Assembly: GCA_963736115.1 (NCBI GenBank)
Contig: CAVTNR010000012.1
Coordinates: forward strand, 320,001-384,000
Source of the DNA: an uncultured bacterium
GTDB taxonomy: Bacteria > Zhuqueibacterota > QNDG01 > DTFT01
Length of the DNA stretch: 64,000 nucleotides
Direction: 5' to 3'
Positions 38,578-56,705 of the stretch are shown here, one piece after another. Position 1 is the first letter of the stretch; every line of letters begins with the position of its first letter. The notes beneath the pieces are model-generated. The model did no database searches, was not told the origin of the DNA, and saw nothing but the letters and a program-made list of their open reading frames with translations. A program made the position numbers and the translations under genes.

Positions 38578-41316
38578 TCAATCCGCCTTGATCATTTTGA
38601 TGGCTTGAACGCGACCGTTGGATTCCAGGCGGCAGATGTATACGCCCGCCGCCGCATCGGAACCGGACTCATCCCGGCCGTCCCAGTCCGCGCGGTATTC
38701 GCCCGCGGGCCGCCATCCGGCCACCAGCTCCCGCACGCGCCTGCCCCGCACATCGTAAACCGTCAATCCCGCATCGCCCGGCTTGTCCAGGCGGTAATGC
38801 ACCGAGGTCCCGGGGTTGAACGGATTCGGATAATTCCAGTCCAGGCCGAATCCCGTTGGATTCGGCCTTCCGCTGCCGACACCGGTCACAACCGTCGGCG
38901 CAAGCAGTGTCTCCCGCTCGTTCAGACTGAAACGCTCCCACACCACGGTCCCGCCCTCATCCGCACAGCGGAACCTCAGTTTCAGGAACACGCCTGCCTC
39001 GTTCACAGGACTCGCTCCGTACAGTGCGATCTTCCACAGGCCGTCCGAGGGGCCGCTGGCTTCTGTCTGATACCCTTCCGTCAGCTCCGTTGTCTCAGCG
39101 CCTTCGAATGTCAGGCCCGATCCCTCGAGCCGGAACCAAACGTCCGCGGCGAGAAGGCCCGAATTCGCCTCCACGGTCAGCGGGACTTCCACAATCTTTT
39201 CGGACAAAGCCGCCCCGACCCGCGACGGCGCGGCCGCACTACCTGCATCGGCCTTTTCAGCGCCGGATGTCGAACCCCAGTTCTCGCTCACATCCCCGGT
39301 CACCCAGCAGGCGAAATTCTGGTTCCGGTAGCCCCTGTCCATCACGGGGTATGTGTATTTTCCCGGATTGAACCGCCAGCGGCCGATTTTGGAAGCCGCG
39401 TCGTTCTTTTTACCCACCGCGTACCGCGCGATATAAGTCGCGTCCAGCGCGTTCACATCAAGGCTGGAATCCGCGTCCGCCGCCATCTTCTGTGTGGCGG
39501 ACAGAGTGTCCAGGCCCGCGCACTTCAGCAGAACCAGGGACGCGTCATAGGCTGTGATCACGCCGGTGCCGAGGTCCTCGGCTCTCGGCTTGGACGGCGT
39601 CACGGTCAGGTTGGTGACGCCGTAATTGATGGGATAGAAGCCGTAGAGGCCCGCGACATCCGTGTAATCGGTCTGGGTCATGGATCCGGTCAATTTCACC
39701 GCGGCCTGGATGACGGGCCGGTTCGTCCGGACATGCTTCGCTTCACCCTCAACTGCCACCACGCCGTATTGGGTCGAGTTTTCCTCCGTGATGGTCATGA
39801 ACTGGTCAGCCATGAGCCCGATCCAACGCTGGACAATGCCGCTCGGCCAGTGGATGCGGACGGAATCGACGCTGACGCTTGAGCCGAGGCCGAAATGCAC
39901 CCAAAAGCTGTCGGTCTTGTACCCGCCGCCGCCCAGCACCTGCCGCATCTGCTTCTTTCCGCCATCGTAGTAGAGCACCACGCGCGCGCCCACGGCCATG
40001 CGGTTCGACTGCACACCGACGAGCTTGAACTGGATCCAGTGGTTGGGGCCTCCGTCGTTCATGAACAGGGTCGCGGAAATGCCCTCCAGCACGGGCCCCT
40101 TGGTCATGTAAATGTCCAGGTACCCGTCACGGTTGTAGTCTCCAATCGGCGTGCTCCAGTACCATTCGTAATCCTCGCGCACGCCGGCCGCGGCCGAGCA
40201 CTCCGTGAACGTGCCGTCGCCGTTGTTGTTGAAGAGCAGGAGCCGCAGTCCGTTCCGGGTGACGATGAACAGCTCCTGGTCCCCGTCATTGTCGAAATCG
40301 CCGGTGGAAAGACCGCCGCCGAACACCGAGCCCTCACGGTAGATCACGACCGAGTCAACGCCCGCGGCGGGCGCCACGTTGGCGAAGATGTTGGAGCCGT
40401 TGTTCCGGTAGAGCTGGCAGGCATAAGCCTGCCTGCGGATGAACAGGTCCCAGTCAAGGTCATTGTCATAGTCAAAGAAAATGGCGCCCACATTGTAGCT
40501 GTCGCGCGGAATGTTGTAACGCGCCGACTCTTCCCACAATGTGGCGTTTCCGTTGTTGCGCAGCAGCATCGACCCCGCGTCATACCTCGGCACATAGATG
40601 TCCGTGTCTCCGTCGAGGTCGACGTCGGCCATGGCGAATCCGTACAGGTCCTTGAACGTCGGCACGTGGTTCCAGAGGTCCGCCTCTCGTGTCCGGTCAT
40701 AGAACCACCCGTTCCGGTCATTGCGGTACATGAGAAAAAGCGTGTTGTCGTCGCCCTGGGGATAGGAGTCACGCGTGCCGAACACGTCGACATACCCGTC
40801 GTTATTGTAATCAATGAAAGCGATGGACCGGCAGTGAAAGGTGCGGGGGCTCACGTCCAGACCGCATTTCTGGTCCACGAAAGTCCCGTTGCCCAGGTTC
40901 CGGTACATCAGCGCCTCGTTCTCCTGGTTCCCCATACCGATCAGCATGTCCGGATGGCCGTCATTGTCGTAGTCCGCCACCGCGAATCCCTGGGCGCTGG
41001 GGAAACGATACCCCTCCACGCCCGCCGCAACCGTGACGTTCTCGAACAAACCCAGGTTTTTCGGGTTCTTGAGGAGGGTGTGCGGGAGGTTGATCCAGTT
41101 CCCCTCGCTCGTGTTGTGGACGACGAAGATGTCCTCCCACCCGTCGTTGTTGTAGTCCACGAACCCGGATCCATGCGTGTTGCAGACCACCACGGTGTTG
41201 GTGGCCAGTCCGACATCCGTGAAATGGAACGGCCCCGAGACAGCGACGGCCGCGCCATGCGCCAGAAGGCAGGCGCCAGCGAGGCGCAAGCGTTTGATTC
41301 CGGTGAGAGTGGTCAT
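38578..41316 (-). CDS. secreted FG-GAP/ASPIC-UnbV protein with dockerin-like, cohesin-like and FlgD/T9SS-like C-terminal domains (paralog 1)
   Basis: Repeated D(Y/F)DNDG..D+L..N.G.G.F; SN..AVGARV...QMRQV.GG.GY...HFGLG...WPSG; TAYDA..AAD.D...NALDA..WRF..GDVS.NW; NYPNPFNP...WDGRD..G...GVY. Confidence 0.9.
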   Translation of the reverse strand: MTTLTGIKRLRLAGACLLAHGAAVAVSGPFHFTDVGLATNTVVVCNTHGSGFVDYNNDGWEDIFVVHNTSEGNWINLPHTLLKNPKNLGLFENVTVAAGVEGYRFPSAQGFAVADYDNDGHPDMLIGMGNQENEALMYRNLGNGTFVDQKCGLDVSPRTFHCRSIAFIDYNNDGYVDVFGTRDSYPQGDDNTLFLMYRNDRNGWFYDRTREADLWNHVPTFKDLYGFAMADVDLDGDTDIYVPRYDAGSMLLRNNGNATLWEESARYNIPRDSYNVGAIFFDYDNDLDWDLFIRRQAYACQLYRNNGSNIFANVAPAAGVDSVVIYREGSVFGGGLSTGDFDNDGDQELFIVTRNGLRLLLFNNNGDGTFTECSAAAGVREDYEWYWSTPIGDYNRDGYLDIYMTKGPVLEGISATLFMNDGGPNHWIQFKLVGVQSNRMAVGARVVLYYDGGKKQMRQVLGGGGYKTDSFWVHFGLGSSVSVDSVRIHWPSGIVQRWIGLMADQFMTITEENSTQYGVVAVEGEAKHVRTNRPVIQAAVKLTGSMTQTDYTDVAGLYGFYPINYGVTNLTVTPSKPRAEDLGTGVITAYDASLVLLKCAGLDTLSATQKMAADADSSLDVNALDATYIARYAVGKKNDAASKIGRWRFNPGKYTYPVMDRGYRNQNFACWVTGDVSENWGSTSGAEKADAGSAAAPSRVGAALSEKIVEVPLTVEANSGLLAADVWFRLEGSGLTFEGAETTELTEGYQTEASGPSDGLWKIALYGASPVNEAGVFLKLRFRCADEGGTVVWERFSLNERETLLAPTVVTGVGSGRPNPTGFGLDWNYPNPFNPGTSVHYRLDKPGDAGLTVYDVRGRRVRELVAGWRPAGEYRADWDGRDESGSDAAAGVYICRLESNGRVQAIKMIKAD

Positions 41317-41317
41317 G

Positions 41318-42310
41318 TCATGCTTCTCCCGTCTGGGGTGAACGGCCGTCCCGCATGGGAATCCGCGTGATGGTATACCCGGCATCCGGGTGAATGGTCC
41401 TCGTCCACCTGAACATTTTCGAAAACACAACTCCGGCCACGGGCAGACGTTTGAGGCCGTCCAGAATACGGGCGGCCGAACGGCTGTAGTCGAAAGGCGG
41501 CTTCGTGTAATCGTACGCGTGCATGTCCTGAAAACGGTCCTCGAATCCGAACCGCGTTACCAGCATGTCCGGATGCTGGGACTCAAAGGCTTCGATCATC
41601 CGCCGCTTCATCCGGAGCTGTTCTTCCGTCATGGCCAGGCGGTACACGGGATCCGGACGCACCGGCTCCGGCGGATAGCCGGTTGCGGTGAAAGGGACGA
41701 ACCGGATCAGGCCGGACAGGATCTTCTCCGGAGTCGTGCGGAACGACAGATAAAAATTGTATTCCGGCGATTCGAACACGCGTCCCTTGAATCCGGAACT
41801 GCGGACGGCCTCGGCTGTCATGTAATTCACGACATCGTGCTGATAATGACCGCCTTCGTACAGCGGTATAAAAATCGTTTCCGGTTTACGGTTCCGGATT
41901 TCCGCTTCGATTATCCCGATGCAGGCGTCGATTTCCTCCCTTGCGGTCAGGCCGGTCAGGGAAGAATACTCCAGAAACCGGATGTCTGTCTCTTTCACGC
42001 CGGCCAGAGCCCAGGCGGCCAGGGCCTCGGACCGTCTTGCAGGAGTCCCATTCTCCATTCCGTCGGTCACATAAAGGACGCGAACGTTTCCGCCTTTCTC
42101 TTTCGTCTGCAGGCCGTAACCGCCGGCAATGGCCACGCAATCATCCTGATGGGGCGCGATGATGAGGATGTCTTCTCCGCCTGCCTCGATCGGCCTGAAC
42201 CGGCGCTTCCGCAACCGGGTCCGCACCCACAGCAGGAAAGCTGCAACCATAATCGCGGCATAAAGAACCGCGAGGATAATGAGAACCGTCCAGAGCATCC
42301 GGAGTATCAT
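41318..42310 (-). CDS. membrane-anchored PIG-L/LmbE family deacetylase
   Basis: N-terminal TM; IIAPHQDD, VTDG, RR.EA, EGGH.QHD, F.SQ. Confidence 0.85.
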   Translation of the reverse strand: MILRMLWTVLIILAVLYAAIMVAAFLLWVRTRLRKRRFRPIEAGGEDILIIAPHQDDCVAIAGGYGLQTKEKGGNVRVLYVTDGMENGTPARRSEALAAWALAGVKETDIRFLEYSSLTGLTAREEIDACIGIIEAEIRNRKPETIFIPLYEGGHYQHDVVNYMTAEAVRSSGFKGRVFESPEYNFYLSFRTTPEKILSGLIRFVPFTATGYPPEPVRPDPVYRLAMTEEQLRMKRRMIEAFESQHPDMLVTRFGFEDRFQDMHAYDYTKPPFDYSRSAARILDGLKRLPVAGVVFSKMFRWTRTIHPDAGYTITRIPMRDGRSPQTGEA

Positions 42311-42326
42311 ATTCCAAAAATGCCAA

Positions 42327-45089
42327 TCACTGCATTTTCACCATCTTGATTGTCCGGACGCGTCCGCCGGACTCCAGACGGCAGACATAGACGCCTGCCG
42401 CAGTCTCAAGCCCGGAATCGTCCCGGCCGTCCCAGTCCGCGCTGTATAAACCGGCCGACCGCCAGCCCTGGACCAGCTCCCGGACACGCCGGCCCCGCAC
42501 GTCGAATACCGTCAAACCCGCATCGCCCGGTTTGTCCAGCCGGTAATGAACCGAAGTCCCCGGGTTGAACGGGTTCGGATAATTCCAATCCAGACCGAAT
42601 CCCCGAGGAACCGCACCCCTATCCCCGACTCCGGAAACCAGCGTCTCCGGGAGCCGCATCTCCCGCTCGTTCAGGGCGAAACGCTCCCACACCACGGTCC
42701 CGCCCTCGTCCGTGCAGCGGAACCTCAGATTCAGGAACACACCCGTCTCGTTCACCGGACGCGCCCCGTACAGCGCGATCTTCCACAAACCGTCCGACGG
42801 GCCATGCCATTCCGTCTGATAATCCTGCGTCAGTTCCGTTGTCTCCAAGCCTTCGAATGTCACGCCCGATCCTTCCAGCCGGAACCACACGTCCGCGGCC
42901 AGTAGACCCGAGTTCGCCTCCACGGTCAGCGGGACCTCCACGATTCCTTCGGACGCAACCGCCCCGATCCCCGACGGCGCGGCCGCGCTGCCTGCGCCGG
43001 ACTTCACCGGGCCGGGCGTCGAACCCCAGTTCCCGCTGACATCCCCGATCACCCGTCCGGCGAAATCCCGGCCGAACAGGGGTTCGGTCATGACCGGAAT
43101 GGACAGGCTGTCCGGGCTGAAAACCCATTCCCCCACAAACGACAGGCCCTGGTCCGTCAGGCCGACGGCGTGTCGCGCGATCAGGGCCGCGTCCAGGACA
43201 CTCAGCGTGTCGTCCCGGTCCGCGTCCGCTCCGTTCCTTCTCGCCGCTCCCATGGTGTCGAGCCCGACCAGGGCGCGGAGGACCAGGGCCGCGTCATAGG
43301 CCGTGATCACAGTATCCCGCACATCCTCACCCGCGTGTTTCACCGGAGTCAGGACGAGCTTCTCGGTGCCTGCGGGAACGGGATAAAAACGGTATCCGCC
43401 GTTTTCATCCGTTGTGTCCGAGACGGACATCCCGCCCGTCAGCCGCAGAACGGTACGTGAAACCGGCCGTCCGGACGGCGCTTGTCGGACCGCGCCTTCG
43501 ATGAAAAGATTCTCGTACCCGAGATCCGGATCGCCTTCCGTGACGGAAACGAACTGGCCCGGCGCGATGCCCGTCCACTTCTGCACGGTCCCGGCAGGCC
43601 AGTGGATGATCAGGCTGTCCACGACCGAAGCCGACCCGAGCCCGAAATGAACCCAGGTGCTGTTGGTCTTGTAACCCTCGCCGCCCAGCACCTGGCGCAT
43701 CTGCTTCTTTCCGTCCGCGACCAGGACAAGACGGCTGCCGACCGCGGAGCGGTTGCTGGTGACCCCGGTCAGGTGAAATTGGATCCACTGATTCGAAGAG
43801 AAGGCGCCGCTGGTGTTCCGGTACAGATGCCCCCCGCCCTTGGGATCGGAGGAATTGCTCCTGGCCATGTACACGTCCAAAAATCCGTCATGGTCGTAAT
43901 CCGCGACAGGCGCGGTCCAGTAATCCCAGAGGTCCTCGCGCAGGCCCGCGGACTCTGCAATTTCCGTGAACGTGCCGTCTCCGTTGTTCCGGTACAGCAG
44001 GAGTTCCATGGCCCACCGGGTGATCACCAGCAGGTCGACGTCTCCGTCATTGTCGAAATCGCCGGTGGACAAACCGCCGCCGAACACATTGTCGCTGACA
44101 TACTGGACGGTATGATTGACGCCCGCGGACGCGCCGACCTCGGTGAACCGGCCGTTCCCGTTGTTCCGGAAAAGCAACGCGGGCCTGAACGCGCGGCGGA
44201 CGTAGAGATCCCAATCCCCGTCGTTGTCATAATCGAAAAACACGGCGCCCACGAAATAGGTTTCGCCGTAAGTGGGAGCCGGAAAACCCCAGTCCCGAAA
44301 CCGGTCCTGCAGTCCGCCTTTTCCGTCGTTGATGAGCATGACGGAGGCTGCTTCGCGGCGCGGCACGAAAATGTCCTGATCCCCGTCCAGGTCCACGTCC
44401 GCCGTGGCGAATCCGTACAGGTCGCCGGGCGTGGCGAAGAGGGTGTTCAGACCCGCGTGGCCACGCTCAAAGGCCCACCGGCCCACGTTCATGTACGTGA
44501 CCACGAGCGGCAGTTCAGGCGGATACTCGGGCAGTCTGGAACAGGAGATGAAGAACAGATCCAGCAGACCGTTGTTGTCGAGATCGATGAACGAGACACC
44601 CCTCGCCCGGTAGGTATAAGCGCCGTCCAGCTGGCCCACATCCACGGCCGTGAACGTGTTGTTTCCGTCGTTATGGTACACGAGCGCCCTGTCGAAATTG
44701 CTCCCGCATGCGACCACCATGTCCATGGCGCCGTCATTGTCATAGTCCGCGGCCGCGAATCCCTGCGCGGACTGGGTGAGCAGGCCCTGGACCCCCGCCT
44801 GCCCGGCCACATCGATGAACCTTCCGTCCTTCTGATTCTCCAGCAGGGCGTGCGGAAACGATCTCCATGAGCCGATGCTGGAATTGTGCACGACAAAGAT
44901 GTCGTCCCATCCGTCCCCGTTGTAATCGAAAAATCCGGAACCATGCAGATTGACCCGCACAACGGAGTTCGTGGATTCACCCACGTCTTCGAACGTGATC
45001 TGTGCCCGGGTCTGCCCGAAAAGCATGGAAATAAATATTCCCAGCATAGCCGTCAACCAGGGCCTTCCGGAAATGAAGCGGGTGATCAT
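42327..45089 (-). CDS. secreted FG-GAP/ASPIC-UnbV dockerin-cohesin protein (paralog 2)
   Basis: 920 aa; same architecture as paralog 1; signal peptide ending TRAQ. Confidence 0.9.
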   Translation of the reverse strand: MITRFISGRPWLTAMLGIFISMLFGQTRAQITFEDVGESTNSVVRVNLHGSGFFDYNGDGWDDIFVVHNSSIGSWRSFPHALLENQKDGRFIDVAGQAGVQGLLTQSAQGFAAADYDNDGAMDMVVACGSNFDRALVYHNDGNNTFTAVDVGQLDGAYTYRARGVSFIDLDNNGLLDLFFISCSRLPEYPPELPLVVTYMNVGRWAFERGHAGLNTLFATPGDLYGFATADVDLDGDQDIFVPRREAASVMLINDGKGGLQDRFRDWGFPAPTYGETYFVGAVFFDYDNDGDWDLYVRRAFRPALLFRNNGNGRFTEVGASAGVNHTVQYVSDNVFGGGLSTGDFDNDGDVDLLVITRWAMELLLYRNNGDGTFTEIAESAGLREDLWDYWTAPVADYDHDGFLDVYMARSNSSDPKGGGHLYRNTSGAFSSNQWIQFHLTGVTSNRSAVGSRLVLVADGKKQMRQVLGGEGYKTNSTWVHFGLGSASVVDSLIIHWPAGTVQKWTGIAPGQFVSVTEGDPDLGYENLFIEGAVRQAPSGRPVSRTVLRLTGGMSVSDTTDENGGYRFYPVPAGTEKLVLTPVKHAGEDVRDTVITAYDAALVLRALVGLDTMGAARRNGADADRDDTLSVLDAALIARHAVGLTDQGLSFVGEWVFSPDSLSIPVMTEPLFGRDFAGRVIGDVSGNWGSTPGPVKSGAGSAAAPSGIGAVASEGIVEVPLTVEANSGLLAADVWFRLEGSGVTFEGLETTELTQDYQTEWHGPSDGLWKIALYGARPVNETGVFLNLRFRCTDEGGTVVWERFALNEREMRLPETLVSGVGDRGAVPRGFGLDWNYPNPFNPGTSVHYRLDKPGDAGLTVFDVRGRRVRELVQGWRSAGLYSADWDGRDDSGLETAAGVYVCRLESGGRVRTIKMVKMQ

Positions 45090-45120
45090 GACCGCTTTTC
45101 TTTAACGTAAGGCATTTTTA

Positions 45121-45149
45121 AATATACACCTTCTATATTAAAAAAACAA
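45121..45149 (-). promoter_or_regulatory. sigma70-type promoter for paralog 2
   Basis: TTGTTT-17 nt-TATATT in an AT-rich gap; inverted repeat TTAAGT-AATA-ACTTAA upstream at 45182-45197. Confidence 0.45.
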
Positions 45150-45228
45150 ACAAACACCACTTAAATTGCGCTATGTTGTTGTTAAGTAATAACTTAATTC
45201 ATTTTTAAGACCGGATTCCCGGTTCAGT

Positions 45229-47990
45229 TCACTGTATTTTGATCATCTTGATCGTCCGGACGCGTCCACCGGATCCCAGGCGGCAGATGTACACACCCGC
45301 CGAAGCCTCAAGTCCGGACTCATCCCGGCCGTCCCAGTCCGCTCGGAATTCACCCGCGGGCCGCCATCCAGCCACCAGCTTCCGCACGCGCCGGCCCCGC
45401 ACATCATAAACCGTCAAACCCGCATCGCCCGGCTTGTCCAGCCGGTAATGAACCGAGGTCCCGGGATTGAACGGGTTCGGGTAATTCCAGCCCAAACCGA
45501 ATCCCGAAGGAACCGGCCTGCCGCTCCCCACGCCGGTCACAACCGTCGGCGCAAGCATCGTCTCCCGCTCGTTCAAGGCGAAACGCTCCCACACCACGGT
45601 CCCGCCATCATCCGTACAGCGGAACCTCAGCTTCAGGAACACGCCCGCCACTTTCACCGGACGGGATCCGTACAGGGCGATCTTCCACAGGCCGTCCGTG
45701 GGACCGCTGGTTTCCGTCTGATAGTCCTTCGTCAGCTCCGTTGTCTCAACGCTTTCGAATGTCAGGCCCGATCCCTCCAGCCGGAACCACCCGTCCGCGG
45801 CGAGAAGACCGGAGTTCGACTCCACAGTCAGTGGAACCTCCACCGCGTCTCCGGACAGAGGACCGCTGATCCGCGACGGCGCGGCCGCTTTCACAGAACC
45901 CGTTTTCCCGGGACTCAGCGGCACGCCCCAGTTCGCGCTGACATCGCCGATGACCCGGCATTGGAAATCCTGGCCGGTCACGGATCCGCTGAGGACCTCG
46001 ATGAAACGGACGGCCGGATCGAAGAGCCAGCCTCCTGCAAACGAAATTCCGTCAATGCGCCTGCCCACGGCATAACGCGCGATAAAAGCCGCGTCCAGCG
46101 CATTCACGTTTCCGTCGCGGTCCGCGTCCGCGGCAGCGGTCTCGTCCGAATCCAGCCTTTCCAGCCCCGCCACATGGCGAAGAACCAGTGACGCGTCATA
46201 GGCGGTGACTGTGTTGAAACCCACATCCTCGCCGACCGTTTTCAATGGCGTCAGCACCAGATCCCGGGTGCCGTCCAGAACCGTGGTGAAACGGAATGTG
46301 CCGTCCGGGCCTGTCGGGACAGCCGCGGCCATGCCGCCTGTCATGCGCAGGGTCGCGCGGTTGACGGGATACCCGGTCGGGTTGTGCCGTACACGCCCCT
46401 CCACGGATCCGGCCGCATATTCCGGTTCGGGGGCACCCTCGGTCACGGAAATGAAATGGCAGGCCGGGATGCTGTTCAGGCGCTGAACCGCCCCGCTCGG
46501 CCAGGTGATGGTCAGGTTGTCCACAGTGGATGCCGTCCCGAGTCCGAAATGGACCCAGGAGCTGTTGGTCATGTACCCCGCGCCGCCCAGCACCTGGCGC
46601 ATCTGCTTTTTTCCGCCCGCGGTCAGCAACAGCCGGCTCCCGACCGCGGACCGGTTGCTCGCCACACCGGTCAGGCGGATCTGGATCCACTTGTTGGCCG
46701 GGGTTCGAGCGCTGGTGTTCCGGTACAGGTGGCCTCCGCCCCTGGGATCGGAGGAATTGCTCCTCGCGAAATAAATATCCAGGAATCCGTCCCGGTCATA
46801 GTCCCCGACCGGCGCGCTCCAGTAATCGTAGAGATCCTCGCGCAGACCCGCGGATTCGGCGGTTTCCGTGAACGTGCCGTTCCCGTTGTTCCGGAAGAGC
46901 AGGAGCTCCATGCCCCACTCGGTGATCACGAGCAGATCCACGTCCCCGTCATTGTCGAAGTCGCCCGTGGAAAGGCCCCCGCCGAAACAGCTGTTGCCCG
47001 TGTACGGAACGGTCAGGCCGACACCGGCTGACGCGCCGACTTCCGTGAACCGTCCGGCGCCTGTGTTTCTGAAGAGCAGGGCCGGCCTGTAGGCGCGGCG
47101 TACGAACAGATCCCAGAAACCGTCATTGTCGAAATCCAGGAAAACCGCGCCCGTGTAATAGGTCTCGCCCGCGGAAGGGGACGGCAGTCCCCACGCGATG
47201 AACCGGTCCGTGAAGGACCCGCTCCCGTCGTTGATCAGCAACAGGGATTGCGTGTCGCGCCGCGGGACGAAAATGTCGGGGTCGCCGTCCAGGTCCACAT
47301 CCGCGACCGCGAACCCGTACAGGTCGCCGTCCGTCGCGAGCCAGGAGCCCAGCCCCGCGTTCCGTGCGGGTGAAGGAACCGTCTCCGTTGTTCCGGTACG
47401 CCACGCATGCGGGCAGTTCAGGCGTGTAATCCGGCGTCCGCGTGGAGCAGAAGAAGAACAGGTCCAGCCGGCCGTCATTGTCGATGTCAATGAACGCGAC
47501 ATTCCGGGCCCCGGTAGGTGTAATGCCCGGCCGTCAGCCCCGCGTCCGCGATCGCGTACGTGCCGTCGCCGCGATTGCGGTAGAGAAGCGCCTTGTCATT
47601 GTTGTTGCCGCATGCGATCATCAGGTCCGTGTGCCCGTCATTGTCGTAATCAGCGGCCGCGAATCCCTGCGCGGACTGGACCCACAGTCCCTGACAGCCG
47701 GCGGCTTCGGCGACGTCTTCAAACCGGTTGTTCCGCAGGTTCTTCAGCAGGGCGTTCGGAAAACTCCTCCAGGCGCCCAGGCTGGAATTGTGCACGACAT
47801 AGATGTCGTCCCACCCGTCTCCGTCGGCATCGAAAAATCCGGAGCCGTGCAGGTTGACCCGCACAATCGAGTTCGTGGATTCACCCGCATCCTGGAACGT
47901 GATCTGGGCCTGGGCCGGACGGAGAACCGGCAGGCACCCGATCCAGACCAGGGCCAGGATCCGGAATCCCGCGGGAACGCGGCGGTTCAC
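45229..47990 (-). CDS. secreted FG-GAP/ASPIC-UnbV dockerin-cohesin protein (paralog 3), two 1-nt frameshifts (~47510, ~47363)
   Basis: ORFs 47487-48071, 47123-47404 and 45229-47502 join into one protein collinear with paralog 2 after removing two extra G. Confidence 0.88.
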
Positions 47991-48080
47991 GGTAATGGTT
48001 CCCGTCGTGAGTTGATCACCCGATACGCGCCTTCCTGACCGGGAAACCTGAAACGTCCTTCCGGTTTCCACCGGTCATTT

Positions 48081-51000
48081 CTATCTGATCTTGACCGCTT
48101 TCCGAAAGCTCGTCCTGTCCCCGGCCGTCATCCGGATCACATAGAGTCCGGACGGCGCCTCCATTCCGGATCCGTCCCTGCCGTCCCATTCAATCCTGAA
48201 TTCGCCCGCGCTTTTGCGTCCCTCGAACAGCACGGCCGTTTCCCTTCCGTACGCATCCAGGACGCGTATTGAAACCGGACCGGTCTTATCCAACCCGAAC
48301 AGGATGGTCACGGCCGGATTGAAAGGATTCGGGTAAACGGCGGACACTCCGAAAGACGAGGGCCCGGAGTTTCGCGCAGGACGCAATGCCGTGGTGTCAT
48401 GCGAGGTTGTGTCCGGCCGAATGATGCGGACAGCCGTGATGCCGCCCGCGGCCGGATGGTCGTCAAAGGCCAGTCCTGACCATTCGAGGCCGGAGCGCTC
48501 CGGGCCGTCCAATTTCGGCGCGAACCGCAGAATCATGAAGGGTCCGGAACGCGCCTTCGGCCGGCCGGAGTACAGGGCGGCGCGTATCCGTCCTTTCTCA
48601 GGTTCCCGGCAAGCCATCGCCAGGACGTCCATGGAATCAGCCTGTATCGCTTCAACGAATGAAACCGCGGACGTATCGTAATTGACTTCCAGGGACGCGG
48701 AACTGAAACCGAATCCGGCCGGAGCGGAAAGCGCCGCCTCCAGTACGACATCACCGGAATCCGCGGTCAACGCGTCCGGAAAGAGCCCGGCCGCGTCCAG
48801 AGAATCGGGCCGCCGGTTCCAGTTTCCGCTGGCATCTCCGATGACAATGGCCGTGTAATCCTCGGAATAATGGGACCGCCGCAGTTCCGGGTAAATCCGT
48901 TGATCCGGTATGAAACGCCATTCTCCGAGGGGGATGGTTGAGGCATCCGCGGACCCGACCGTCCATGCGGCGATCCGATCGGCATCCGCGGGCTCGATCA
49001 GGCCGTTGCCGTCCGCGTCCGCGGCCGTGCGCCGCTCCGCAGGGAGCGCGTCTCCGGACAAATGGCGCATCACTTCAGCCGCGTCCAATGCCGTGACCGC
49101 GGCCGCTCCGACGCCCTCCCATGCCGCCTTGAAAGGCAGCACTTCCAGGTCGGACACCCCGTATGGAAGGGGCGCCAGCTGATAGAAGCCGGCCGCGTCC
49201 GTTGCGACCGTGTCCGCCAGCGGGCCCCGGGCTTCGACCGAAACGCCGGCCACGGGGTCGCCTGTCCCCGCATAACGGCTGTTCCCCTGTATGGAGAGAT
49301 CCCGGCCGGTCACGACGGACCGTCCGGCCCGCACGGGGTTTTCGTTCAATATGAGCCCGGTCCATTCAATGACAGTCGGCGGAATGGGATACCGGAGCAT
49401 TCGGAACGAAACCGTAAACAGGGCTCCGGAGGCGGGAACGGGATCCTCCGAATAGAGCGCGACCCCAACCCGGCCGCGGACCGTCTCGGACGCAAGCACG
49501 CGGCAGCCGGCGGCTTCGGAAGACGGAATCGCGGAGAGGAAAGCCAGCGCCGTGGTGTCATACTCAAAGAAGCAATTCGCTGAGCGCAGGTCCGTCCGAT
49601 CCCCTGTTCCCACTGGAACCGCAACCGTCTGCTTGAAGCGTTCCGCCACGACCGAATCGGGGAAAACAACAGCCGCATCGGCTGTGTCTGCCTGCCGCCA
49701 TCCGTTTCCGCTCGCGTCCCCGGACAGAGCGGCCTCGAAATCCTGTCCGGTATGGGAATGGGTGATCGCGGAAAAGGTCCTGGACACGGGAGTGAAACGC
49801 CATTCGCCGATGGATGGAACGGATCCGCTCTCACATCCGGCTGAAAACGCCGCGACCAGGGCCGCATCCGTGGTATCGATGCGGCCGTCCGCATTGACGT
49901 CCGCGGCCGCCTGAAGCGCAAGGGGGAGCACGGCCGATCCGGCAGCATGCCGGAGGATGCATGCTGCGTCGAATGCGTTGACAGCTCCCGGCGGGACATC
50001 CGCGCCCGCGGGCTTGGACGGCGTTAAAACCAGGTTCGGTGCGCCGTACGGGATCCACCCGGTCCGGAAATCGCCCGACGCGCCTGTCACGGCGTCCGGA
50101 TTCAGAAGTCCGGCCGATCCGATCACCGCGCCGGAGACGCCAGTGGCGGTTCCGGCATAGGTGACCACGCCGGAGACAGTCAAGTCCACGCCGTTCACGG
50201 CCGTGGTCGCGGTTCCGTACCGGACCTCATTGAATGCGAGCCGTGTCCATGTCAGGGCCGACGCCGGTTCCGGGAACTGCAGCATGCGGAATTTCAGAGT
50301 CAGGAAAGCGGATCCAGGGGAAAGCGGCCGAGTGCCGTACAGAGCGAAGGCGAGCCGGCCGGGTGTCTCCGAATTCGTCACCAGATTGAAGTCTGAGATC
50401 GAAGACGCCTTGTCGGCCCGCACGAATTCAAGCGCGGACGAATTGGTTTCGAGCCGGATGTCGGCTGAATACGCGTTCTGGATATCCGGGACGTTCAGTG
50501 TGACATCAAACAGTCCGGTGTTTCGATACAACGCGACCGCTTCCGGGACGATGCCGCCGGATGCCGCGTCCGAAGGATCCGCTCCCCAATTGCCTGACGC
50601 GTCGCCTGAAAGCAAGGCGGTAAAGTCCTGTCCCGCAACGGAGGCGATGACATTCGAATAGCTCCGGCTGGCGGGCGAGAACCGCCATTCGGATATGCGG
50701 ACACCCGCGGCCGGCGCAAGGCCCGCAGAGACCCTGGCCGCGGCGGCCGCGTCCAAGCTGTTGATCGTTCCGTTTCCGTCCGCGTCCGCGGCCGCCTGCA
50801 GGGCCTGCGGGATGGCACTGCCCGCGGCGTGCCGGAGCATCAGAGCGGCGTCATACGCGGTCAGAACGCCTTCTTCAACCGGAACACCCCCGGTCTTTCC
50901 GGGACGGATAACCAGAGCGGGTTCATTGTACAGAATGGGCCTGAACGCGTATTCCCCTGTTGCGTCCGACCGGACGGAAACCGGGGGGCCGTCTCTCCGG

Positions 51001-52628
51001 ACTTCCACGTCCGGAACCGGCCGGCCCGAGGCGACGTACCGGAACGCGCCCGAAACCGCGAGATCGCCGAAATACTGCACGCCGTCCTGCTCACGGACGT
51101 CGTAGAACAGGCCTGCGGGGATTCCCATGATTTTCTGCACCGCGCCGCTCGGCCAGTGGACGATCAGCGTGTCCACCCTCGCTGCGTTTCCCAGTCCGAA
51201 ATGCACGGTGAAACTGTTGACCTTGTAACCCTCCCCGCCCGTCACCTGCCGCATCTGGCGCCGGCCGTCCGAGAACACTTCGAGACGCGCACCCACGCCG
51301 GACCGGTTGCTCCGCACGCCCGTGAGGCGGAACTGGATCCAGTTGAGGCTTCCCCCGGTGTTCCGGTACAGGGACGCGAACTGCGCAGGGACGTACGGGT
51401 TGAGGCTTCTGCCCATGTAGATGTCGACATACCCGTCATGGTTGTAGTCCGCGACCGGCGCGGACCAGTACCAGCGGTACGCGCCTTCGTCGATCCCCGC
51501 GCGGTAGGCCATGTCCGCGAACTTGCCGTTTCCCCAGTTCCGCAGGAGCGCGGCGTCGCCGCCCCACTCGTTGATGGACAGGATGTCCGTCCATCCGTCA
51601 TTGTCGAAGTCCGCGGCCGTGAGCCCGCCTCCGAACACATTGTCGAGGTGGTACCAGCCCAGGTTCAAGCCGATGCCCGCCTGCTCGGTGACGTCCGTGA
51701 ATGTGCCGTCGCCGTCGTTGCGGAACAACCGGCCGAACACATTGCCCGGATTGTCCGCGAACTCGCGCTTGAGGAACAGATCCCACCATCCGTCATTGTC
51801 GTAGTCGAGAAACAGGGCGCCGAGACAGCGGGTGTCGGAGGGGAGGCCCCGGTCGGCGGTGCGCTCGGTGAAGGCGCCGTTTCCGTTGTTGGACAGGAAA
51901 ACCGAAGGCGCGTCGTATCCCGGCGCGTAGATGTCGACGAAACCGTCGTTGTCCACGTCCGCGGCCGCGAATCCGTACTTGTTCTCGGGCGTGGGCCTGT
52001 AGTCCCAGATGCCGGCTTCCCGCGTCTTTTCCTCGAATCCGCCCCGGCCGTTGTTCATGAACACGAGAAACCGGGGGTCGTAGGCGAGGTTCTCCGGCCA
52101 GGTGTCACGGGTCGCGAACAGGTCGACGAACCCGTCGTTGTCGATGTCCATGAAGGCGAGGTTCCGGGCGCGGATCGTCATGCCTTGCGGATCATAGACG
52201 CGGTCCACGTCTCCGAAGGTCCCGTTCCCCCGGTTCTCGTAAAAGAGGATCCGGTTGTACTTGCCCATGGCCACGGTCATGTCCATGTCGCCGTCATTGT
52301 CGAAATCCGCGGCCGCCAGGCCCTGGGCGCTGGACCGGTCGTATCCCCTCGTCTCGGACGCACCCGTGACGTTGATGAAAGCGCCGTTGCCCTTGTTCCT
52401 CAGCAGAGAGTGATCGGTGTCGGCCTGGCCCGTGCTGTAGTTGTGGATGACGTAGATATCGTCCCATCCGTCCCCGTTAGTGTCGAAAAATCCGGAGCCG
52501 TGTGTGTTGCACAGCACCTGGGTGCCGGAGGCAACTCCGACGTCGTTGAACGACGCCTGGCCGAAGGCGGAAGCGGTCAGGCCGAACGCCAGCAGGACGA
52601 GGCATGCATGCCGGGAGTGTCGGGACAT
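48081..52628 (-). CDS. large secreted FG-GAP/ASPIC-UnbV protein with three tandem [Ig-dockerin]-[cohesin] modules and FlgD-like tail (paralog 4)
   Basis: About 1515 aa; three copies of A.DAA..(L/M)RH..G..AAD...(N/D)G.I...DA..WRF.P..D(F/Y).A...GDASGN, each followed by a beta-sandwich with ALY and F; YPNPFNP tail. Start may be 52679. Confidence 0.9.
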   Translation of the reverse strand: MSRHSRHACLVLLAFGLTASAFGQASFNDVGVASGTQVLCNTHGSGFFDTNGDGWDDIYVIHNYSTGQADTDHSLLRNKGNGAFINVTGASETRGYDRSSAQGLAAADFDNDGDMDMTVAMGKYNRILFYENRGNGTFGDVDRVYDPQGMTIRARNLAFMDIDNDGFVDLFATRDTWPENLAYDPRFLVFMNNGRGGFEEKTREAGIWDYRPTPENKYGFAAADVDNDGFVDIYAPGYDAPSVFLSNNGNGAFTERTADRGLPSDTRCLGALFLDYDNDGWWDLFLKREFADNPGNVFGRLFRNDGDGTFTDVTEQAGIGLNLGWYHLDNVFGGGLTAADFDNDGWTDILSINEWGGDAALLRNWGNGKFADMAYRAGIDEGAYRWYWSAPVADYNHDGYVDIYMGRSLNPYVPAQFASLYRNTGGSLNWIQFRLTGVRSNRSGVGARLEVFSDGRRQMRQVTGGEGYKVNSFTVHFGLGNAARVDTLIVHWPSGAVQKIMGIPAGLFYDVREQDGVQYFGDLAVSGAFRYVASGRPVPDVEVRRDGPPVSVRSDATGEYAFRPILYNEPALVIRPGKTGGVPVEEGVLTAYDAALMLRHAAGSAIPQALQAAADADGNGTINSLDAAAAARVSAGLAPAAGVRISEWRFSPASRSYSNVIASVAGQDFTALLSGDASGNWGADPSDAASGGIVPEAVALYRNTGLFDVTLNVPDIQNAYSADIRLETNSSALEFVRADKASSISDFNLVTNSETPGRLAFALYGTRPLSPGSAFLTLKFRMLQFPEPASALTWTRLAFNEVRYGTATTAVNGVDLTVSGVVTYAGTATGVSGAVIGSAGLLNPDAVTGASGDFRTGWIPYGAPNLVLTPSKPAGADVPPGAVNAFDAACILRHAAGSAVLPLALQAAADVNADGRIDTTDAALVAAFSAGCESGSVPSIGEWRFTPVSRTFSAITHSHTGQDFEAALSGDASGNGWRQADTADAAVVFPDSVVAERFKQTVAVPVGTGDRTDLRSANCFFEYDTTALAFLSAIPSSEAAGCRVLASETVRGRVGVALYSEDPVPASGALFTVSFRMLRYPIPPTVIEWTGLILNENPVRAGRSVVTGRDLSIQGNSRYAGTGDPVAGVSVEARGPLADTVATDAAGFYQLAPLPYGVSDLEVLPFKAAWEGVGAAAVTALDAAEVMRHLSGDALPAERRTAADADGNGLIEPADADRIAAWTVGSADASTIPLGEWRFIPDQRIYPELRRSHYSEDYTAIVIGDASGNWNRRPDSLDAAGLFPDALTADSGDVVLEAALSAPAGFGFSSASLEVNYDTSAVSFVEAIQADSMDVLAMACREPEKGRIRAALYSGRPKARSGPFMILRFAPKLDGPERSGLEWSGLAFDDHPAAGGITAVRIIRPDTTSHDTTALRPARNSGPSSFGVSAVYPNPFNPAVTILFGLDKTGPVSIRVLDAYGRETAVLFEGRKSAGEFRIEWDGRDGSGMEAPSGLYVIRMTAGDRTSFRKAVKIR

Positions 52629-52686
52629 CGCCTTTCGACCTCCTCGTTTATCCGTTTTCCGCATCAATTCGTGTCCCATTTTTATC

Positions 52687-53538
52687 CTAAATATTCAGCA
52701 ACGGGAACTCGGAATACAAATTGTCCACATCCCCGGCTTCGAGATCCGCTGAACGAAACAGCCTCGGCCGTTTCAGCGCCAGCCGGAAGGAACCCGGAAT
52801 CCGCACTCCCTTCAGCATCCTCTCGTCCGCGTACAGGGACGTGACGCGGAGACTCAGGCACAGCTTCGCGACCGCGCGTCCGGAACACCGGCTGAATACC
52901 TCCGGATTTCCGAGGTGGTGGATCGAGCCGAGCCAGAACGGCTTTTTCCTCCGGACCATGCGGCTGATCACGCAGAAACAGCGTCCCCCTCCGGATGTGA
53001 TCAGAAAGCCATGGCATCCGGGAAACCGGTGATCGTCCCTGAGCCTGCGCTCCTCCGGAGTCAGAATGTCCTCCTCCCCTTCGTCCGCCTCGGTCACCCG
53101 GCACGCAGGCCCGGAGGGAAAACGGGGCATGAGCACGGATGTGCCGGTTTCCAGTTCACGGAACCCGGCTTTCAGCAGAAGCCCGGACACTTCGGCCGAG
53201 GGCGTGAGATCCACAATGTCCGTTCCCTTTTCCTTCAGCAGGGGCAGGAGCATGAATACACTCCGGCCCCGGAACGGTTCCCGCACGATCCAGCTGGTCA
53301 GGCTGCAACTCCTGCGCTCCCGGCCGGCCAGAACACGACGGCTGAATAAAGCGCCCAGGAATCCCACGGGGCTCTCGCCATCCAGCATCAAGGTGCCGCA
53401 AAACGGCTCTCCGGATCGGAACGGATCAGTGAAGATCAGGCGCCAGCCTTCGTCCGCCACATAGGGGTTGCGGAATTCCCTCAACAGGGGGAGCGCGGCG
53501 TCGAAATCAGCCGGCCCCGCGTTCCGCACGGTCACCAA
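52687..53538 (-). CDS. GNAT-family acyltransferase-like protein
   Basis: VR.A...D, VGFLG, SWIVREPFRGRS, DLTPS..V...L.K.GF. Confidence 0.65.
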   Translation of the reverse strand: MVTVRNAGPADFDAALPLLREFRNPYVADEGWRLIFTDPFRSGEPFCGTLMLDGESPVGFLGALFSRRVLAGRERRSCSLTSWIVREPFRGRSVFMLLPLLKEKGTDIVDLTPSAEVSGLLLKAGFRELETGTSVLMPRFPSGPACRVTEADEGEEDILTPEERRLRDDHRFPGCHGFLITSGGGRCFCVISRMVRRKKPFWLGSIHHLGNPEVFSRCSGRAVAKLCLSLRVTSLYADERMLKGVRIPGSFRLALKRPRLFRSADLEAGDVDNLYSEFPLLNI

Positions 53539-56457: not shown

Positions 56458-56705
56458 CCGTCCGTCCGCATGTTCCGGAGTACCAGGTCGGCCACGGATT
56501 GGATCGTGGAAAACTGGGCTTCAGTAACGTCTTCAATGGCAATGGCCGCCCCAAACCGGGTCTCCAGGAATGTCAGAAATTCGACCACCCCGAACGAATC
56601 CAGCGCGCCCTTGTCGAACAGGTTGTCCGAGTCCGAGGGCTCGAATCCGACCGTGGTTTTGAAATGACCACGAAGTTCCTGCCTGATTTCTTGAATATTC
56701 GGCAT
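56454..56705 (-). CDS. acyl carrier protein
   Basis: 83 aa acidic; LF..GALDSFG phosphopantetheine Ser motif; LE..FG..I. Confidence 0.88.
   Translation of the reverse strand: MPNIQEIRQELRGHFKTTVGFEPSDSDNLFDKGALDSFGVVEFLTFLETRFGAAIAIEDVTEAQFSTIQSVADLVLRNMRTDG

Follow-up and report, generated by a model that had tools for sequence, protein, structure and literature searches.

Four tandem paralogs within a glycan locus

The window, that is, the whole 64,000-nt stretch of DNA of an uncultured bacterium analysed here, carries four tandem paralogs (P1-P4) on its minus strand at 38578-52679 (Table 1). A sequence-only reading of this DNA had described them as a signal peptide, a propeller, an ASPIC/UnbV domain, one or three sets of modules and a tail, and all of these parts were found where it had placed them. 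Its tandem array stands as far as the four paralogs are concerned, but a PIG-L gene lies between P1 and P2, and P3 is split by a frameshift. The triple module of P4 is likewise present, with coordinates 48360-51062 instead of about 48420-51065. The flanks were also correctly named: AsnB lies on one side of the array and the ligase, acyl carrier protein (ACP) and decarboxylase genes on the other.

Table 1. Features of the propeller array and its flanks (window coordinates)
Feature	Position	Strand	Remarks
AsnB-type amidotransferase	36694..38568	-	9 nt downstream of P1; Asn_synthase 227 bits
Paralog 1 (P1)	38578..41430	-	950-aa ORF; signal peptide, 7-bladed-type FG-GAP propeller, UnbV_ASPIC, one cassette, T9SS CTD
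P1 T9SS type A C-terminal sorting domain (CTD)	38587..38832	-	YPNPFNP motif; TIGR04183 at residues 867-948; FlgD_ig
P1 cassette	38857..39756	-	Ig (CarboxypepD_reg/transthyretin-like) with loop-inserted dockerin, ~25-aa linker, cohesin
PIG-L family de-N-acetylase	41318..42310	-	between P1 and P2; PF02585 54.6 bits
Paralog 2 (P2)	42327..45089	-	920 aa; P1-like layout; one cassette 42606-43505; CTD 42336-42581
Paralog 3 (P3)	45229..48071	-	frameshift-split; cassette 45508-46407; CTD 45238-45483
Paralog 4 (P4)	48081..52679	-	1532-aa ORF; propeller, UnbV_ASPIC, three cassettes, CTD 48090-48338
P4 cassette 3	48360..49292	-	module alignment
P4 cassette 2	49293..50177	-	module alignment
P4 cassette 1	50178..51062	-	module alignment
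283-aa protein	52687..53538	-	possibly GNAT-like acyltransferase
PLP-dependent decarboxylase, AMP-forming ligase, 93-aa acyl carrier protein	53532..56735	-	NCBIfam; PP-binding 28.4 bits

The start of P1 is most likely Met39 (41316), one base after the PIG-L stop, and that of P4 is likely Met18 (52628), the position at which the earlier reading had ended the array. P3 consists of two ORFs, 47487-48071 (194 aa) and 45229-47502 (757 aa), with a one-base frameshift at a G/C run near 47490-47510. The P3 ortholog is intact in a metagenome-assembled genome (MAG) of the same genus (L004), and a 935-aa open frame is found in G001. When sequencing runs were searched with positions 46800-48200, the best run contained at most 0.16 of the sampled words and no RNA run was listed. 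Orthologs of P4 with three cassettes, 1509-1522 aa long, are encoded in three genomes of the same order. Spacing between genes is operon-like (-20 to 16 nt), with two exceptions, 139 nt before P2 and 55 nt at the Wzx3-ACP gene junction.

Besides PIG-L and the AsnB-type amidotransferase, the locus contains the ligase/ACP/decarboxylase genes and GT2s. The 283-aa protein gave no Pfam or NCBIfam match; its nearest ESM Atlas clusters are named N-acetyltransferase domain proteins (score 0.98, a lead only), and it is conserved at 38% in two relatives (L105 and L107). The analogy with PEP-CTERM systems made in the sequence-only reading proved apt, since exosortase-A/PEP-CTERM-associated families are the best NCBIfam matches of all three flanking enzymes (ligase, decarboxylase and amidotransferase). 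AsnB scored 249 bits with TIGR03108 (XrtA/PEP-CTERM system amidotransferase), under the family cut-off, and the exosortase-A-system-associated families TIGR03099 (427 bits, cut-off 478) and TIGR03098 (564 bits, cut-off 592) were also matched below their cut-offs. The 87%-complete genome gave no match to exosortase (PF09721) or to the PEP-CTERM domain (PF07589), the latter a weak blank, as that model was silent in control genomes too. XrtA/PEP-CTERM systems likewise encode C-terminally tagged secreted proteins together with an EPS locus. In contrast, the tag here is a T9SS CTD and the sortase PorU, and the three enzyme scores all fall below the family cut-offs.

CRTAC1-like propeller heads

Pfam analysis of the paralogs identified FG-GAP_3 (E 1e-27 to 9e-39) and UnbV_ASPIC (56-63 bits), and the head of each intact paralog contains 6-7 DxDxDG loops. 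Pfam, loops and fold together thus revealed the arrangement that defines the CRTAC1/ASPIC-UnbV family, a Ca-binding FG-GAP propeller followed by a UnbV_ASPIC domain. The AF2 model of P1 residues 60-558 (pLDDT 91.4, pTM 0.93) had murine CRTAC1 as its best Foldseek match (9etn_A, E 6.8e-30, TMq 0.77), and the fungal GlcNAc-binding propeller lectins AAL2 and PVL ranked next (E about 1e-10). Domain and fold matches therefore agree with the FG-GAP/UnbV, CRTAC1- or lectin-like propeller recognized earlier. The FG-GAP propeller plus UnbV_ASPIC head is common to murine CRTAC1 (PDB 9etn) and the paralogs, but animal CRTAC1 lacks cohesin, dockerin and T9SS tail, and sequence identity is only 19%. The glycan produced by the locus is the most likely ligand of the propeller, which would be a lectin or adhesin; for the lectin role, the analogy comes from the fold alone.

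We also considered that the FG-GAP/ASPIC head might be a lyase, hydrolase or modifying enzyme acting on the polysaccharide of the locus, the cassettes serving only as tethers. Periplasmic or surface enzymes are encoded in many EPS operons, the position of the propeller gene inside the biosynthetic operon, beside sugar-tailoring enzymes, is conserved, and the cassette is often joined to enzymes on other carriers. Two propeller enzymes, rhamnogalacturonan lyase YesW (2zux_A, E 1.6e-7) and aldos-2-ulose dehydratase (4a7y), are among the weaker fold matches. However, CRTAC1 is by far the best match, followed by lectins, neither Pfam nor NCBIfam detected a catalytic family in the paralogs, and four diverged tandem paralogs fit binding diversity better than one catalytic task. 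An enzymatic head is, accordingly, quite improbable.

Predicted export by the type IX secretion system

The tail of the paralogs, previously described as YPNPFNP/FlgD-like, is the T9SS type A sorting domain: TIGR04183 was found above its cut-off of 23 bits in all four (25.4-33.9 bits; 32.4 in P1), and FlgD_ig scored 33-37 bits. The genome also encodes the secretion machinery, with PorU at 840 bits (cut-off 420) and SprA_N at 151 bits, and contains 96 matches to Por_Secre_tail. With a CTD above cut-off and the machinery in the same genome, the four proteins have the attributes of T9SS type A cargo, and their sequences show them to be predicted Sec- and T9SS-exported proteins. PorU cleaves the CTD of T9SS cargo and tethers the cargo to a surface glycan.

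A widespread cassette of Ig, inserted dockerin and cohesin

The cassette spans ~295 aa: a transthyretin-like Ig domain, one loop of which accommodates a dockerin, is joined by a linker to a cohesin fold. All six cassettes are homologous, with 58-59% identity among those of P1-P3 and 27-37% between the P4 modules and the others. The AF2 model of the P1 cassette reached pLDDT 91.9 and pTM 0.89 over all 300 residues, the linker being of low confidence. In this model, strands at 2-55 and 127-152 flank helices at 69-79, 87-93 and 103-113, and the cohesin strands occupy 179-291. The Ig part aligned with domain II of carboxypeptidase D (1qmu_A, VIA Z 9.0).

Pfam Cohesin (PF00963) matched P4 with 27.4 bits, above its cut-off of 24.1, and P3 with 17.9 bits, below it, and did not match P1 or P2 at E<=0.01. 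Among 57 scanned carriers found by a profile of the six cassettes, 45 have Pfam Cohesin at E<=1e-5, with scores of up to 158 bits. The P1 model, Foldseek and VIA all revealed the nine-stranded jelly-roll beta-sandwich of cohesins. Cohesin chains made up 23 of the 24 Foldseek matches listed within ranks 1-25 (2ccl_A, E 1.4e-8), the other being the cohesin-like module 2jh2_A, and the best 15 VIA-align rows were all cohesins (Z 9.8-11.6). What had been called a cohesin-like beta-sandwich is thus a true cohesin fold. Its best structural match is the non-cellulosomal cohesin of Archaeoglobus fulgidus (2xdh_A; VIA Z 11.6, rmsd 3.5 over 126 residues; Foldseek E 4.9e-7). The array cohesins are likewise non-cellulosomal, but the A. 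fulgidus domain is archaeal and lies outside any Ig-dockerin-cohesin cassette; its parent protein presumably also bears a dockerin.

Regarding the dockerin, the suggestion of an Ig domain with dockerin-like EF-hand helices was borne out by Pfam and by the P1 model. Dockerin_1 (PF00404) matched P4 in three stretches (66.7 bits) and P3 (34.2 bits) above the gathering score, and P2 (22.3 bits) and P1 (20.5 bits) fell just under the cut-off of 22.9 bits. A profile search of the PDB also retrieved dockerins (8x39_A, 2e-8; 1ohz_B, 5e-3). The first Ca loop is degenerate in all six dockerins, lacking a DxDxDG-type pattern, and the second is canonical in four and degenerate in P1 and P2. None of the six modules has the duplicated 22-residue segment with two Ca-binding F-hand loops of type I dockerins, and three helices are predicted. 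Judged by these loops, the dockerins of the array are dockerin-derived single-site variants.

The cassette profile retrieved 12118, 3660 and 829 representative proteins at E<=1e-3, 1e-10 and 1e-30, respectively, mostly covering positions 2-290 of 300; the 829 are clusters at 50% identity and a lower bound. Carriers include GH88, GH114+peptidase C1, FGE-sulfatase, PD40, WD40, TIG, PKD and BACON proteins. Among the enzyme carriers scanned, the cassette is C-terminal to the GH88, GH114/peptidase C1 or FGE-sulfatase domain. It precedes a FlgD_ig/Por_Secre_tail match in P0029 and P0107, and no tail match was found in P0093 and P0068 at E<=1e-5. The genome contains no further copies outside the four genes. 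Judging from its homologs, the cassette is a widespread, mobile unit present on many unrelated extracellular carriers of several phyla and is not special to the array. The searchable part of the literature on cohesin and dockerin with FG-GAP, type IX secretion or the same polypeptide contained no description of an Ig(dockerin insert)+cohesin cassette. As a widespread unit, the cassette is new.

Conserved linkage to the glycan locus in relatives

The sequence-only reading had placed the array inside an EPS locus, and a synteny analysis showed that this linkage holds in related genomes. A propeller-cassette-CTD gene, with a propeller-like head taken as 5-8 DxDxDG loops, lies among homologs of the glycan genes of the window in 11 of 16 relatives outside the genus, and gene order is identical in three contigs of same-genus MAGs. 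In seven of the 11 the gene directly adjoins PIG-L and/or AsnB, at 41-52% identity. PIG-L neighbours the propeller gene in L105-L110 (46-52%), and AsnB does so in L108-L110, L112 and L114. These results show the predicted propeller-cassette-CTD gene to be a conserved member of the glycan locus in the bacterial order of this genome. This conserved embedding is new, and it links bacterial CRTAC1-like propellers to a concrete partner in the genome, namely a specific glycan.

We rejected the idea that FG-GAP/UnbV proteins or the cassette are in general linked to EPS genes. When 83 loci of other lineages carrying FG-GAP/UnbV or cassette relatives were searched (tblastn, E<=1e-8), only one had any homolog of the glycan genes of the window, so that the linkage is lineage-specific. 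As to the lineage itself, the best named matches of RecA, a protein too conserved to settle the phylum, are an uncultured Deferribacteres MAG (74%) and a candidate division KSB1 MAG (75%), and a search of the MAG for rpoB gave no match.

The array is a variant of the non-cellulosomal cohesin-dockerin proteins, real and new, and its conserved association with a glycan locus is notable. Array and linkage together point to a putative undescribed surface glycoprotein system. Veith et al. tied the T9SS linking-sugar enzymes WbpS and VimA to PEP-CTERM-associated families (PMC7468200). The conserved position of T9SS cargo genes beside genes for enzymes that resemble exosortase-associated and linking-sugar enzymes offers a testable route to cargo anchoring outside Bacteroidota.

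A possible glycan-tethered layer on cis-packed stalks and its alternatives

The explanation that we favour, with a probability of about 0.45, is that of an exported, glycan-tethered and glycan-binding protein layer whose cassettes are spacer stalks packed in cis. After export, PorU would remove the CTD and tether the proteins to surface glycan. Each cassette would be a single compact, Ca-stabilised unit in which the cohesin packs on its own Ig-dockerin, acting as a rigid spacer that keeps the propeller away from the cell, and three in series would make a longer stalk. The propeller, probably a lectin or adhesin, would bind the glycan made by the locus, resulting in a protein layer both tethered to glycan and binding it. 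Cohesin-dockerin bonds between molecules may add cross-links and would not be required.

Modelling favours the cis-packed stalk. A freely placed cohesin should give a pTM near the largest rigid share, about 0.5, and the pTM of 0.89 therefore suggests that the cassette is one compact unit. Mean-field DCA was performed on 184 cassettes (Meff 171) with columns of <5% gaps and provides weak evidence. Its strongest pair (57-118) marks the neck of the dockerin insert, and the couplings 211/212-269 agree with a beta3-beta8 pairing. The inter-domain couplings formed two Ig-cohesin patches, 25-27/40-43 with 229-236 and 53-58 with 185-191; the best dockerin-cohesin pair scored 3.2, compared to 7.5 for Ig-cohesin. 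DCA on all 300 columns was discarded, since most of its signal came from gap artefacts at the termini and the first dockerin loop.

Three observations go against the cis reading, namely orphan cohesins, homogenisation of the P1-P3 cohesins and the precedent of Amy4. Among the best 150 representatives of the cassette, 73 have one Ig-dockerin and one cohesin unit and 63 have more cohesin than Ig-dockerin units (1:2 in 58 of them). Many cohesins of this family are thus without a partner in cis, an indication that some members bind in trans. In P1-P3 the cohesin segment is homogenised, with 75-81% amino acid identity and dS 0.34-0.47; dS is 0.51-1.16 in the short Ig_C segment and reaches 0.9-2.6 in propeller, Ig_N and dockerin. 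Scaffoldin cohesins that need one common specificity show such homogenisation. Amy4 of the Ruminococcus bromii amylosome (GH13) also carries cohesin and dockerin on one secreted chain; according to PMC4611034, its dockerin recognises the chain's own cohesin, and multimerisation was proposed. Amy4, however, is a Firmicute amylase encoded outside a glycan biosynthesis locus, its dockerin is C-terminal and not Ig-inserted, and its anchoring is sortase/ScaE-like, not T9SS.

These observations would fit the mesh proposed in the sequence-only reading, in which dockerins pair with cohesins of other chains, giving head-to-tail polymers, branched by the three-cassette protein, that display propellers and cross-link the polysaccharide in a Ca-dependent manner. 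Both modules are real, relatives share the linkage to the glycan locus, orphan cohesins are common, and homogenisation of cohesins relative to dockerins is expected if all chains are cross-compatible. On the other hand, the monomer cassette is predicted as one compact unit, the linker of ~25 residues would permit cis binding at very high effective concentration, and the strongest inter-domain couplings join Ig, not the dockerin helices, to the cohesin. Ca loop 1 is degenerate throughout and loop 2 in P1 and P2, and across the order, conservation is lower in the cassette (28-32%) than in the propeller (41-50%). We consider the mesh unlikely. A complex prediction with two copies of the P1 cassette gave ipSAE 0.00 in both runs and counts neither for nor against. 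A decision between self-clasping stalk and self-assembling connector would account for how thousands of surface proteins are built, and the cassette could give protein engineers a compact Ca-dependent connector.

A bolder version of trans bonding, which we regard as rather doubtful, is a T9SS counterpart of exosortase/PEP-CTERM EPS systems, with an amine-bearing linking sugar, propellers attached by PorU and a trans-bonded, branching, Ca-dependent lectin mesh. The tailoring genes of such a system would be the polyprenyl-P-sugar GT2s, PIG-L, the GNAT-like protein, the amino-acid-type ligase/ACP/decarboxylase and the AsnB-type amidotransferase. The linking sugar would sit on a dedicated surface polysaccharide and the attachment of propellers by PorU would be covalent. 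If so, a covalently glycan-anchored mesh would make the cell envelope or floc matrix.

Finally, the six cohesins might be sockets for the canonical double-loop C-terminal dockerin proteins of the cell, in a T9SS-anchored, cellulosome-like display of enzymes. Such dockerins occur outside the array (five Pfam matches, seven with a 75-aa query), no cohesins were detected in the genome beyond those of the four paralogs, and a candidate client is a papain-like peptidase with a lectin-like domain, as one of the dockerins is on a Peptidase_C1+Lectin_like protein. A GH114+Peptidase_C1+Lectin_like protein of another organism (P0068) bears the cassette instead. Co-occurrence, however, is weak: C-terminal dockerins were found in 16 of 40 relatives and the cassette in 34 (dockerins in 15 of the 34 cassette-positive and 1 of the 6 cassette-negative genomes), counts that come from a single-protein 75-aa query and may miss divergent dockerins. 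No C-terminal dockerin was matched in eight of the 11 relatives with a propeller-cassette gene in the glycan locus, and one genome has 13 C-terminal dockerins and zero cassettes. In the MAG, three of the five Pfam-detected dockerin genes look split just upstream of the dockerin, and none of the dockerin-bearing proteins examined is a glycoside hydrolase. Altogether, dockerin clients are very unlikely. According to PMC8542988, a T9SS-CTD scaffoldin with dockerin enzymes has been proposed for Candidatus Stygibacter (Cloacimonadota, FCB group), where tandem cohesins likewise reside on a T9SS-CTD protein in a non-cellulolytic setting. There, the scaffoldin carries the cohesins and the enzymes carry the dockerins, whereas in the array each cohesin has an Ig-inserted dockerin as 1:1 partner on its own chain, and a propeller takes the place of CBMs as the head.

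Cassette architecture

The array proteins are a variant of non-cellulosomal cohesin-dockerin proteins with two previously undescribed features that merit follow-up: a widespread cassette that combines an Ig-inserted dockerin with a cohesin, and, in an organism with a T9SS, an order-wide tie of this cassette to an exosortase-like glycan locus. Every gene from ~10.7 kb to the end of the window, including the four paralogs (P1-P4), lies on the minus strand. Pfam searches of the array proteins matched FG-GAP_3 (E 1e-27 to 9e-39), UnbV_ASPIC (56-63 bits) and FlgD_ig; Dockerin_1 scored 66.7 bits over three stretches in P4 and 34.2 bits in P3, and Cohesin scored 27.4 bits, above its cut-off, in P4 and 17.9 bits in P3. 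CarboxypepD_reg scored 22-35 bits, with P4 alone passing the 32.3-bit cut-off and no match in P1 at E<=0.01. The NCBIfam model TIGR04183 (T9SS type A sorting domain) was above cut-off in all four paralogs.

The six ~295-aa repeats of the array could be aligned over their whole length. In the AlphaFold2 model of the P1 cassette (31-row alignment; pLDDT 91.9, pTM 0.89), the dockerin, made up of three helices (69-79, 87-93 and 103-113), splits a single Ig domain composed of beta strands 2-55 and 127-152; a low-confidence linker (~155-178) and a nine-strand sandwich (179-291) come next. The modelled sandwich is a cohesin: 23 of the 24 Foldseek matches listed (ranks 1-25) were cohesin chains, the remaining one being the cohesin-like module 2jh2_A, and the cohesin 2ccl_A matched at E 1.4e-8. 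A search independent of Foldseek against 48,161 representative chains returned cohesins as all of its best 15 matches, led by 2xdh_A, a non-cellulosomal cohesin of Archaeoglobus fulgidus (Z 11.6, rmsd 3.5 over 126 residues). The Ig part resembles transthyretin-like and carboxypeptidase regulatory domains (1qmu_A, Z 9.0), and because ~80 of its residues align across model range 1-154, the dockerin is confirmed as an insertion in the Ig. Calcium loop 1 is degenerate in all six copies and loop 2 is canonical in four, being degenerate in P1 and P2, so that by its sequence this is a reduced dockerin. The anatomy that the sequence-only reading had assigned to the four paralogs was thus confirmed by Pfam, NCBIfam and predicted structures, and its cohesin-like sandwich was upheld in two structure searches.

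P3 is split by a single-base frameshift within a run of G/C near 47490-47510; since a same-genus MAG has the ortholog in one continuous frame, the split reflects either recent pseudogene formation or an error of assembly. Translation of P1 likely starts at Met39 (41316), one base past the PIG-L stop. Intergenic gaps from the ACP gene through AsnB measure -20 to 16 nt, with the exception of 139 nt before P2, and with gaps this short the block looks co-transcribed. A fifth UnbV_ASPIC protein (1131-aa frame), without a cassette, is encoded in the window's own MAG (G000).

Coordinates of the features, in the window or, where prefixed, in the window's own MAG (G000)
Feature	Location	Strand	Remarks
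Paralog 1	38578-41430	minus	950-aa ORF
PIG-L de-N-acetylase	41318-42310	minus	between paralogs 1 and 2
Paralog 2	42327-45089	minus	920 aa
Paralog 3, two ORFs	47487-48071; 45229-47502	minus	194 aa; 757 aa
Paralog 4	48081-52679	minus	1532 aa
Cohesin + CTD part, P1	38578-39370		
Cohesin + CTD part, P2	42327-43120		
Cohesin + CTD part, P3	45229-46020		
Two PMT_2 genes	24252-26564; 29640-31292		GT-C, ArnT / protein-mannosyltransferase-like
Three GT2 genes	33387-36775		ArnC/AglJ-like, polyprenyl-phosphate-sugar
Golvesin_C ORF	13305-15488		727 aa
ORF without family match	16400-18298		632 aa
Low-GC3 ORF	3632-4459		275 aa
Fifth UnbV_ASPIC protein	G000:C17:86081-86311		
Split dockerin genes (L092-L094)	G000 C17:7076-7366; C7:19178-19921; C31:18162-18443		

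Distribution of the cassette

A profile built from the six cassette copies was compared with 1.84 billion representative proteins and matched 12118 of them at E<=1e-3, 3660 at 1e-10 and 829 at 1e-30, the majority of matches covering positions 2-290 of 300. Among the best 150 matches, 34 carried at least three FG-GAP-type Ca motifs and 59 ended in a YPNPF-type tail. A Pfam scan of 57 of the 116 proteins among these 150 that had two or fewer such motifs (the first 57 of up to 1350 aa) found, among the carriers, GH88, GH114 with peptidase C1 and a lectin-like domain, FGE-sulfatase with CBM60, PD40 and WD40 propellers, and TIG, PKD, BACON and HYDIN-like Ig proteins. Pfam Cohesin was detected at E<=1e-5 in 45 of these 57 carriers (top score 158 bits), which ties the weakly scoring cohesins of the window to the Cohesin family. 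Cassette-bearing genome records included Chloracidobacterium, Planctomycetia, Clostridia, Verrucomicrobiales and Fibrobacteria MAGs, and the database names of the matches were generic only (VCBS repeat, FG-GAP-like, "enediyne biosynthesis protein E4", T9SS sorting domain protein). The window's genome (MAG of 3.34 Mb in 31 contigs, 87% complete) showed no cassette outside the four genes.

Binding within or between chains

The pTM of 0.89 across the three subdomains supports a compact, self-contained cassette in the model and speaks against the idea, put forward in the sequence-only reading, that dockerin-cohesin bonds between chains build a polymer mesh that cross-links the EPS. A coupling analysis of 184 cassettes, whose leading pairs were plausible ones, 57-118 (neck of the insert) and 211/212-269 (beta3-beta8), points, weakly, the same way: couplings between domains chiefly linked Ig loops with the cohesin, in two patches, and those between dockerin and cohesin were few and weaker. 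Several observations do favour binding in trans in some part of the family. Orphan cohesins are common, cohesins outnumbering Ig-dockerins in 63 of the best 150 matches (1:2 in 58), with equal counts in 79 (1:1 in 73) and the reverse in 8. The cohesins of P1-P3 are homogenised, with a dS of 0.34-0.47 as against 0.9-2.6 for propeller, Ig_N and dockerin and 0.51-1.16 for the short Ig_C segment, and with 75-81% amino acid identity as against 33-56% for Ig and dockerin. There is also the precedent of R. bromii Amy4, whose dockerin, according to PMC4611034, binds the chain's own cohesin type, with multimerisation proposed and further such pairs in other microbes mentioned. For the array proteins we regard a mesh bonded between chains as unlikely.

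Our preferred reading, to which we give a probability of about 0.45, is that the proteins would be tethered to a glycan and would present a glycan-binding propeller as their head, with compact cohesin-dockerin cassettes as its stalk. The predicted structure of P1 residues 60-558 (pLDDT 91.4, pTM 0.93) matched murine CRTAC1 (9etn_A; E 6.8e-30, TMq 0.77), followed far behind by the fungal GlcNAc-binding propeller lectins AAL2 and PVL (E ~1e-10) and then by integrin alpha chains. The intact heads contain 6-7 DxDxDG loops apiece.

The 3′ ~650 nt of P1-P3 (cohesin and CTD) share 77-88% nucleotide identity, the rest having a dS of ~0.9 or more; this likeness suggests past gene conversion or a shared constraint on cohesin and CTD.

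The glycan locus and its conservation

The window contains a large glycan locus with three Wzx-type flippases, a Wzy-like protein, two PMT_2 GT-C enzymes and many GT2 and GT4 genes, and the genes closest to the array encode tailoring enzymes. The best NCBIfam match of the AsnB-type enzyme was TIGR03108 (XrtA/PEP-CTERM system amidotransferase; 249 bits, below cut-off), and those of the decarboxylase and the ligase were the exosortase-A-system-associated models TIGR03099 (427 bits, cut-off 478) and TIGR03098 (564 bits, cut-off 592); a 93-aa ACP follows the ligase gene. The 283-aa protein beside P4 had no match in Pfam or NCBIfam, and its closest ESM Atlas clusters, a lead only, are named N-acetyltransferase-domain proteins. 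Neither an exosortase nor a PEP-CTERM domain was found in the 87%-complete genome, the PEP-CTERM model giving no match in control genomes either. T9SS parts comprised PorU (840 bits), SprA and 96 sorting-tail matches.

[quoted passage not shown] The window has the same kinds of activity beside its T9SS cargo genes: its block encodes a de-N-acetylase and a possible GNAT, together with an AsnB-type amidotransferase and an amino-acid-type ligase that is accompanied by ACP and decarboxylase. Family by family there are differences, with PIG-L in place of CE4. By this analogy, the locus could possibly specify a dedicated anchor glycan together with its dedicated cargo. The genome also has a weak FemAB-like gene, away from this block.

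The cassette was present in 34 of 40 relatives (same genus 3/3, same family 1/1, same order 25/26, rest of the phylum 5/10). Three same-genus MAGs keep the gene order decarboxylase, 283-aa gene, P4, P3 or P2, PIG-L, P1, AsnB and GT2; paralog copy number varies among them, P2 or P3 being absent in some. When cassette neighbourhoods were examined in 16 relatives outside the genus, the YPNPF tail ended all 20 cassette-bearing frames. Eleven of these 16 relatives had, amid homologs of the window's glycan genes, a gene that combined 5-8 Ca loops with cassette and tail; in 7 of the 11 it directly adjoined PIG-L and/or AsnB (41-52% identity). Three of these genes (in L105, L106 and L107) are tri-cassette genes preceded by PIG-L, with ligase, decarboxylase and 283-aa gene upstream in L105 and L107, and decarboxylase and ACP upstream in L106, where the contig ends. 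The other five relatives showed no glycan-gene neighbours of this kind at the cassette. Among 83 loci of other lineages (74 with FG-GAP/UnbV relatives and 9 with cassettes), any homolog of the window's glycan genes occurred within the flanks in only one. Judged from these neighbourhoods, 11 of 16 against 1 of 83, the linkage of propeller-cassette gene and glycan locus is real, conserved and specific to this order. The glycan-locus context proposed from the sequence was right.

The PMT_2 genes and the nearby ArnC/AglJ-like genes may allow the locus to add single sugars to a glycan or to proteins on the membrane's outer face. The locus also holds a 727-aa ORF whose sole family match is Golvesin_C and a 632-aa ORF without family match. 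A 275-aa ORF with a very low GC3 (0.26), within a stretch of 50% GC (4001-6000; window 64%), may be foreign DNA.

Dockerins elsewhere in the genome

Alternatively, the array could act as a scaffoldin, its cohesins being sockets for separate proteins with C-terminal dockerins. Canonical dockerins of this kind do occur elsewhere in the genome, one on a peptidase C1 and lectin-like protein, and for Cloacimonadota a scaffoldin anchored through T9SS has been proposed (PMC8542988); yet this dockerin type was matched in just 16 of 40 relatives, 8 of the 11 relatives with a propeller-cassette gene in the glycan locus had no match, and one genome had 13 such dockerins and no cassette. Given such patchy co-occurrence, a scaffoldin function cannot, by these counts, be the conserved role of the array, the counts resting on one 75-aa query that may miss divergent dockerins. 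We consider this model highly improbable, and favour the glycan-tethered propeller on a cassette stalk.

Outside the array, Pfam detected five genes with C-terminal dockerins, of which three look split, each with a short ORF of only beta-sandwich and dockerin overlapped by an upstream ORF. Frameshifts could account for the splits, as could misjoined assembly within a conserved 3′ segment.
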